Shown in pieces: positions 44,808 to 45,754 of a DNA stretch of 64,000 bases. The first letter of the stretch is position 1. Each line of letters begins with the position of its first letter. The stretch lies in assembly GCA_963761305.1 (NCBI GenBank), contig CAVXGK010000002.1, positions 1,952,001 to 2,016,000 on the forward strand, in the 5' to 3' direction. The notes under the pieces were generated by a model that saw nothing but the letters and a program-made list of their open reading frames with translations, did no database searches and was not told the origin of the DNA. Made by a program: the position numbers and the translations under genes. Source of the stretch: an uncultured Gemmatimonadaceae bacterium. GTDB taxonomy: Bacteria; Gemmatimonadota; Gemmatimonadetes; Gemmatimonadales; Gemmatimonadaceae.

Positions 44808-45254
44808 CTACGGCTGACGGATGCTGCTGGCGGCCGGCGAGCTGCGTTCAGCGGGGACGGCACCTCTGTACCGGCGGAGCAGGCGGAATGCCGAGACAGC
44901 GAAGCCTAGGGCGACGAGCGAGACCAGGAGTTGGGTGGACGGGCGCCACTGGTGTTGCGCCGCGGCCGCGAGCGCGCTGTACGCGAACAGCCCTGCCGCC
45001 AGGACCGCGCCGGGCCACTCCTCCCTTTCGAGCAGCCACGCCGCGATGAAATAGACCACCGCGGTCATGGTGCCGGCGGCGACTCCCTTCGGATTCCTGA
45101 GGATCACATGCCAGCCGGAATCCGAGCCCGGGCGGGCCCGAACGAGTAGGAGTCCGAGCAGCGACACGATCCACACGGCGCCGGGCAAGACGGCGAAGAT
45201 CGCCGTCGCAGTCACCACCCACGCGTTCGGATAACCGACGGCCGGTTTGGGCAT
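44808..45254 (-). CDS. Hypothetical membrane protein (4 TM)
   Basis: Hydrophobic segments from ATG 45254 (MPKPAVGYPNAW). Confidence 0.6.
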   Translation of the reverse strand: MPKPAVGYPNAWVVTATAIFAVLPGAVWIVSLLGLLLVRARPGSDSGWHVILRNPKGVAAGTMTAVVYFIAAWLLEREEWPGAVLAAGLFAYSALAAAAQHQWRPSTQLLVSLVALGFAVSAFRLLRRYRGAVPAERSSPAASSIRQP

Positions 45255-45289: not shown

Positions 45290-45754
45290 TCAGCCGTCGG
45301 CGGCGGTTTTCCCGACTTCGAACGCCACGCGAACATCCACGATCGCGACCGCGACCGTTCCGTAGAGGGGTCACCGCCGCTTGAAGCCCTCGACCAGCGC
45401 GGCCGCTTGCGCGCCGTCGGTGCCCCACAGCGTGAAGTCCAGGCGAACGGAATTCATCGTCGTGACGTCGGTGCGCGACTGTTTGGCGCGATCGACTTCG
45501 CCGTGAATCCGCACGGCGACGCGTGCGAGCGGCACGTTGGTGTCGCGCGCGATGACGTGGACGAGCTCCACGCCGCACGCGGCGATCGAGGAGAGAAATT
45601 GCTCGATGGGCGTGATCGCTTCGCCGGGACAGCCGTTCTGCACGGGACCGTCGACGATGAAGTGGTGGTCGCGCGCGCTGCAGAGCACGCGGCCAAAGAC
45701 GTCGGTCGAGCGGGCGGCGACGTCGTAGGTGCGGAGGGTGGCGGGTGCGGTCAT
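45290..45754 (-). CDS. OsmC-like peroxiredoxin, probable selenoprotein (Sec at TGA 45371-45373)
   Basis: TPIEQFLSSIAAC (first Cys), then FKRR-TGA-PLYGTVAVAIVDVRVAFEV at the position of the conserved second Cys-Pro; SECIS-like hairpin follows. Confidence 0.85.
45339..45358 (-). promoter_or_regulatory. Bacterial SECIS-like hairpin
   Basis: ACGGUCGC-GGUC-GCGAUCGU starts 12 nt after UGA and has a G-leading apical loop. Confidence 0.7.

Follow-up and report, generated by a model that had tools for sequence, protein, structure and literature searches.

The OsmC-like selenoproteins reported in 2005 have the motif UxxT (PMC1088965; also PMC2398784, PMC1976440, PMC9312934), and the Sargasso Sea and GOS surveys are the source of the published OsmC-like selenoprotein (PMC1088965, PMC2398784). 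In the UxxT representative MCS5647933.1, selenocysteine (Sec, U) occupies the first active-site position (GGIGF-U-LLT) and cysteine the second (PMC12013277). A 2026 catalogue of 119 prokaryotic selenoprotein families holds a single OsmC-like form, UxxT (PMC13188914, Table 1). The constraints on bacterial SECIS elements given in the same source are a loop of 3-9 nt with G in the first two loop positions, a stem of 4-16 bp, a spacing of 16-37 nt and a folding energy of at most -7.5 kcal/mol (PMC13188914). For the wider superfamily, the mechanism of Ohr used below follows PMC5384416 and PMC5962072. The catalytic Arg of Ohr lies in the loop between strands 1 and 2, that of OsmC in the strand 3-helix 1 loop, and one Ohr-like protein displayed no peroxidase activity in the authors' hands (PMC5384416).

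The window, i.e. the whole stretch of 64,000 nucleotides that was analysed, harbours on its minus strand a gene for an OsmC/Ohr-fold protein with ATG at 45754 as start codon. Translation with table 11 gives ...EGFKRR*PLYGTVAVAIVDVRVAFEVGKTAADG*. An earlier note on this DNA had claimed that the frame continues beyond FKRR, and this was confirmed: the TGA at 45373-45371 is followed by an open frame up to a second TGA at 45292-45290. The features of the locus are as follows.

45290..45754, minus strand: full gene, 154 codons plus stop, for an OsmC/Ohr-fold protein with predicted Sec128
45689..45691, minus strand: Arg22, likely equivalent of the catalytic Arg of Ohr, at the junction of strands 1 and 2
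45629..45631, minus strand: Cys42, an extra, subclade-specific cysteine in the loop before P-x-E
45602..45604, minus strand: Glu51, equivalent of the catalytic Glu of Ohr, aligned with Ohr NPEQLF
45575..45577, minus strand: Cys60 (TGC codon), first active-site cysteine (Ohr peroxidatic site), aligned with Ohr YAAC
45371..45373, minus strand: in-frame TGA (codon 128), predicted to encode selenocysteine at the second cysteine site, the 'resolving' one in Ohr, within FKRR-U-P, based on Cys in 74/120 homologs, TGA in 32/37 and 77/80 loci (overlapping sets) and the alignment with Ohr V-C-P
45339..45358, minus strand: SECIS-like hairpin at +13 to +32, 8 bp, loop GGUC (45347-45350), UGA-to-loop distance 20 nt
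45293..45370, minus strand: read-through tail of 26 residues, with the last helix (129-137) and the last beta-strand (140-147) of the fold
45290..45292, minus strand: true stop codon (TGA), in a position that agrees with the C-termini of Cys homologs

The site is covered by contigs from three of the four soil runs compared. Of these, one shows no difference and may come from the source sample, and two, both from one study, are strain variants in which TGA and hairpin are unchanged among the differences listed. The earlier note had named reads with TGC or TGT as a refutation; the covering contigs show TGA, with no change listed at that codon. The gene neighbourhood is not conserved and gave no functional hint. 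A small membrane-protein-like ORF (44808-45254, minus strand) is located 35 bases downstream on the same strand; it had no Pfam match and only weak NCBIfam matches, below cut-off. The neighbours between 37941 and 52233 include an M1 peptidase, a tricorn protease, a GH18 hydrolase, a BNR/sortilin-repeat protein, a kinase-like ORF with an LprI domain and a class IV aminotransferase, and none of the neighbours in this interval was linked to selenium.

Homologs revealed what stands at the position of the TGA. Among the best 120 of 5,830 homologs, 74 have Cys128 and continue beyond it, as the earlier note had expected, 45 end exactly at FKRR (one of these is the shortened product of the window gene itself) and one has Trp. 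At the DNA level, 32 of 37 host-family loci have TGA at the site, as do 77 of 80 named loci that span several phyla; these sets share members and are counted separately. In a set of 150 cluster representatives, 98 domains extend as far as the site, with Cys in 65 and the chain ending there in 33. A distant branch, seeded with one protein ending at the site, yielded 27 loci, and in all 25 that are true relatives TGA is followed by the same stem, with loop CGUG. A sample of another phylum gave seven matches in 201 genomes, three with TGA and four with TGT. The close relatives of the window gene are labelled Gemmatimonadaceae. DNA of the TGA form was found in Gemmatimonadota and in records labelled Acidobacteriota, Thermoanaerobaculia, Burkholderiales, delta proteobacteria, Myxococcaceae and Gaiellaceae. 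Database proteins that stop at this position, seen as protein records only, carry the labels Planctomycetota, Dehalococcoidia and Poribacteria. The one protein with Trp at the site (P0028) continues with TVAVAT, a hairpin-type peptide, and its Trp is probably a Sec codon rendered as Trp by the gene caller, judging from this peptide.

An 8-bp hairpin starting 12 nt after the UGA, with G in the loop, had also been described, and it was found as claimed: ACGGUCGC-GGUC-GCGAUCGU forms eight pairs, one of them G-U, with a spacer of 12 nt from the TGA. It agrees with all four published bSECIS constraints, as checked by hand against PMC13188914, and its 4-nt loop, 8-bp stem and distance of 20 nt from the UGA do not differ from the bacterial SECIS consensus given in that source. 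Folded in isolation, the hairpin reaches -12.2 kcal/mol (z -3.0; 2 of 200 shuffles equally good). In context its energy is ordinary, with z values of 0.20, 0.05 and 1.16 for windows of 54, 44 and 84 nt, so that energy alone does not single it out. Position and conservation do. A strict geometry (stem of at least six pairs, 4-nt loop at +21 with G as second base, C-G closing pair) occurs after 35 of the 120,955 TGA triplets of the genome and a looser one after 431; a looser version is also found behind 13 of 1,117 ordinary TGA-ended long ORFs.

The hairpin lies wholly inside the coding sequence, where it fixes the peptide T/S-V/I-A-V-A-T/I/V in 86 of 87 distinct TGA loci, the remaining one ending in A. 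The six inner stem pairs form in 87/87 of these loci and in at most one of seven Cys loci; a seventh pair forms in 66/87 and an eighth in only one. Several pairs vary while remaining paired: +15/+30 is GC in 78, CG in 8 and AU in 1, +16/+29 is GC in 62, AU in 17 and GU in 8, and +18/+27 is CG in 86 and UA in 1. The second loop base is G in all 87, with loops GGUC (71) and AGUU (16). Third-position variation amounts to 0.09-0.69 bits within the stem, compared to 1.2-1.9 bits at four-fold sites outside it. Covariation in 50 of the 87 loci gave 95.4% of cells paired and 28 both-side changes, counts that are inflated by shared ancestry since related loci are not independent; none of 500 shuffles reached either value and slid controls had at most 58.6% paired. 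The hairpin is under selection as RNA, as far as sequence comparison can tell. One Cys form (L083, G021:C154; codon TGC) retains six stem pairs, with loop GACC, where the SECIS would lie; Sec genes were not found in its genome, which is 82% complete, and the stem is possibly a relic of recent Sec loss.

The tail carries a second signature. The residues P-L-Y-G between TGA and stem and D-V after the stem are conserved as amino acids while their third positions are free, which indicates that the tail is under selection at the protein level. Tail lengths are 18-30 residues in the 87 TGA loci and 18-21 in the seven Cys loci. Conservation as amino acids, together with lengths that match those of the Cys forms, argues that the tail is translated.

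The presence of selA, selB, selC and selD had been named as a check, and the source genome (93% complete) harbours the full set over curated cut-offs: selA at 560 bits, selB at 324, selD at 371 and tRNA-Sec at 71. The selD gene adjoins tRNA-Sec (G000:C2:942665-943803, minus strand), with selA and selB elsewhere on the same contig, and SelD is the Cys form (CAGCAAK). The only tRNA with a UCA anticodon in this genome is tRNA-Sec, and most long ORFs (1,117 of 1,964) end in TGA, which argues against a genome-wide reassignment. Furthermore, the genome contains a formate-dehydrogenase-like (FdhA-like) molybdopterin gene (L198, G000:C1:611582-612145, minus strand) with CNRT-TGA-HAP, followed by a hairpin with a stem of at least seven pairs and a loop beginning GG at +21, the same geometry as in the window. 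CNRT-U-HAP corresponds to the UHxP motif in the PMC13188914 table, and this gene likely encodes a second selenoprotein of the genome, judging from motif and hairpin.

Sec use in this lineage, which the earlier note had seen as an implication, is common: selA was found in 55 of 71 host-family genomes tested. In the 32 TGA-form genomes of the family, selA is present in 29 (in two of them in pieces) and the other three have selB, two of them also tRNA-Sec. All five TGA-form genomes tested from outside the Gemmatimonadota have selA. Of the five Cys-form genomes of the family, three have kept selA, and two (82% and 95% complete) had no match to selA, selB or tRNA-Sec. The selA gene was also found in 22 of 32 host-family genomes without the OsmC-type gene described here (one is the unpublished G007). 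Because selA is this common without the gene, and present in three of five Cys-form genomes, co-occurrence alone is weak; the link with Sec genes agrees with Sec decoding and adds modest evidence, from kin that are not independent.

Residues upstream of the site were the sole basis for a tree of 213 sequences, with a midpoint root and score-biased sampling. It needs eight changes between Sec, Cys and Trp, while shuffled labels need 65.6 on average. Cys clades surround the largest Sec clade, whose 50 sequences include close relatives of the window gene, and this pattern is compatible with several losses as well as with a regain. A Cys-to-Sec regain may have occurred in the lineage of the source genome.

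Pfam PF02566 matches the window protein with 39.5 bits (gathering cut-off 27.5), and the protein is predicted to adopt the OsmC/Ohr fold, in structural models that carry Cys in place of Sec. C60 and U128 are 68 residues apart, compared to about 60 for the superfamily pair. A chain stopping at residue 127 would lose the last helix and strand of the fold. Cys60 is found in 120/120 close homologs and in 143 of 149 distant domains, E or D at the Glu51 position in 153 of 156 domains, and R at the Arg22 position in 140 of 144. By DSSP, Arg22 lies at the junction of strands 1 and 2; its match to the Ohr Arg rests on DSSP together with the loop described in PMC5384416, and in the Ohr alignments Glu, the first Cys and C-P line up. 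Cys42 occurs in all 120 close homologs, the distant domains have C in 79 and G in 50, and it is absent from three distant TGA-form proteins. Cys25 is present in 111 of the 120 close homologs. The protein scores far below the Ohr models (TIGR03561, 19.6 vs a cut-off of 88.85; NF052637, 19.7 vs 240) and below NF041052 (36.5 bits vs 95), a cut-off that none of the 201 genomes of the phylum sample passed. Residues 36-48, the loop that leads from strand 3 into helix 1, contain no Arg.

Three more OsmC-family paralogs with two ordinary cysteines each are encoded by the source genome (L202-L204; G000:C1:1600166, C2:1902820 and C1:1409122), of which L202 has an OsmC-type Arg motif. Relatives with two or four OsmC domains in tandem, all Cys-type, were also found (P0122, P0146, P0154, P0156, P0158-P0161, P0165, P0195, P0199, P0229). 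Several have signal-peptide-like N-termini and some are fused to YdhR or cupin domains; these sequence features suggest that they are exported single-chain versions of the dimer.

Taken together, it is very likely that the gene encodes a 154-residue OsmC/Ohr-fold selenoprotein, which supports the interpretation in the earlier note. The hairpin would almost certainly be bound by SelB, with Sec-tRNA delivered at UGA128. An Ohr-like peroxidase is favoured because the Arg, the Glu and the first Cys are kept, and the protein is probably a homodimeric thiol/selenol peroxidase like Ohr; the dimer would have two active sites, by analogy with the enzymes described in PMC5384416. As the best explanation, held with somewhat more confidence than an even chance would warrant, we propose a hydroperoxide reductase in which Sec128 would resolve oxidised Cys60. 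Cys60, activated by Arg22 and Glu51, would attack the peroxide, and the Sec128 selenolate would react with the resulting sulfenic acid to form a selenenylsulfide between Cys60 and Sec128, which a dithiol, e.g. a lipoylated protein, would then reopen; lipA is present in the source genome. By analogy with Ohr, this whole chain, from attack by Cys60 through the selenenylsulfide to reopening by a dithiol, has slightly better than even chances of being correct. Judging from general selenium chemistry, selenium at the resolving site would speed resolution and re-reduction and shield Cys60 from over-oxidation. Cys42 may serve as an extra relay in the subclade of the window gene, without being required for the Sec form.

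It is very improbable that the TGA is a real stop, in a pseudogene or a gene for a truncated protein, that it stems from an assembly error or that it has been reassigned to Trp or Gly, with a hairpin formed by chance. Such a reading could call on the 45 of 120 database homologs that end at the site and the one with Trp, on the ordinary folding energy of the hairpin in context and on the similar hairpin at 13 of 1,117 true TGA stops. However, different phyla share this TGA together with its frame, tail length and stem, the tail is under selection as protein, a Sec gene is present in every TGA-form host-family genome tested, and a 127-residue product would lack the last helix and strand. Reassignment is at odds with TGA being the commonest stop and with tRNA-Sec being the only UCA-anticodon tRNA, an assembly error with the independent contigs, for which no change at the TGA is listed. 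The in-frame TGA128 is very likely decoded as selenocysteine.

More weight belongs to alternatives that accept Sec128 and assign it a different task. The roles could be swapped, with Sec128 attacking the peroxide and Cys60 (or Cys42) resolving, which we consider unlikely. Sec is usually the attacking residue in selenoperoxidases, a selenolate being the better nucleophile, and this argues for the swap. The Arg that precedes the site in 85 of 87 TGA loci could stabilise Sec128, and the Sec and Cys forms of MsrB need different active-site features (PMC1278935). That Arg is found in Cys forms too, however, and the Sec forms keep Arg22, Glu51 and Cys60, the trio by which Ohr activates its first Cys; on the tree, Sec and Cys have interchanged repeatedly without change at these residues. 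A wider reading, equally unlikely, is that selenium has entered the OsmC/Ohr fold at either active-site cysteine, depending on the lineage, and that the roles are swapped in this uncatalogued branch of several phyla, Sec128 attacking and Cys60 resolving. A selenoprotein that is no peroxidase at all seems improbable as well: it would be a disulfide or persulfide reductase or a carrier of sulfur, selenium or metal, using Cys60/Sec128 together with Cys42 and Cys25. The subfamily models of Ohr and OsmC do not capture the protein, the third, 'Ohr-like' group has been little characterised according to PMC5384416, the close clade has Cys42 throughout and Cys25 almost throughout, and the genome has its three Cys-type OsmC-family paralogs, one with the OsmC-type Arg motif. 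Yet the Arg and the acidic residue are both kept, unlike in the Ohr-like group as described in PMC5384416, and distant Sec forms lack Cys42.

The second-site Sec form is a bacterial subfamily of wide distribution, and its members in databases often end too early, at the UGA. Since gene callers shorten such proteins, counts for the selenoproteomes of soil and marine bacteria are too low. Sec at either cysteine in one fold, together with Sec/Cys pairs that are about 70-75% identical, makes the use of selenium testable at the resolving step. If the swapped roles were true, the natural alternation of Sec and Cys would be a ready-made test of the contribution of selenium to each catalytic step.

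In eight genomes from another family of the same order (L073-L080, e.g. G300:C11:39710-40087), a YhfA-like OsmC lineage has TGA at the first cysteine (LAALGA/S-U-T/M-S-M-T-IALY) and keeps C-P-V at the second. Its own hairpin mostly combines a 6-bp stem with a UGUAU or UGUAC loop. The lineage scores 39-52 bits with NF041052, below the cut-off, and its motif is UxxM, not UxxT. By its sequence, this lineage is possibly a third OsmC selenoprotein form.

The earlier note stated that OsmC-like selenoproteins had already been reported. Such proteins are indeed known, but the known ones carry Sec at the first cysteine and the window gene at the second. Two genes, both in G360, exceed the NF041052 (OsmC_like_Se) cut-off, and both of them likewise have U at the first site, with C at the second. 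The main text of the Haft preprint contains no mention of 'OsmC'. In PMC13188914 a different Sec position makes a separate subfamily, and by that rule the second-site form is a subfamily unlisted there; it is new in position with respect to Table 1 of that catalogue and the other sources cited here. Neither a new decoding mechanism nor a new fold is involved. Like the UxxT protein, the window protein combines the PF02566 fold and a two-cysteine architecture with a single Sec, and its UGA is followed by a hairpin on the 3' side; unlike the UxxT protein, it pairs C60 (C-G-V-E) with U128 in the motif R-U-P-L-Y-G. Compared to Ohr (PDB 1ZB9, 1N2F, 9JX6; TIGR03561), with which it shares 19-23% identity, it has Sec for the resolving Cys and Cys42 in a loop that is Gly-rich in Ohr, and its Ohr-like activity is a prediction. 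Compared to OsmC (E. coli OsmC, PDB 1NYE/1QWI), its Arg is at position 22 and not in the strand 3-helix 1 loop. The window protein is a member of the OsmC/Ohr superfamily with predicted Ohr-like chemistry, outside Ohr, OsmC and the published UxxT family.
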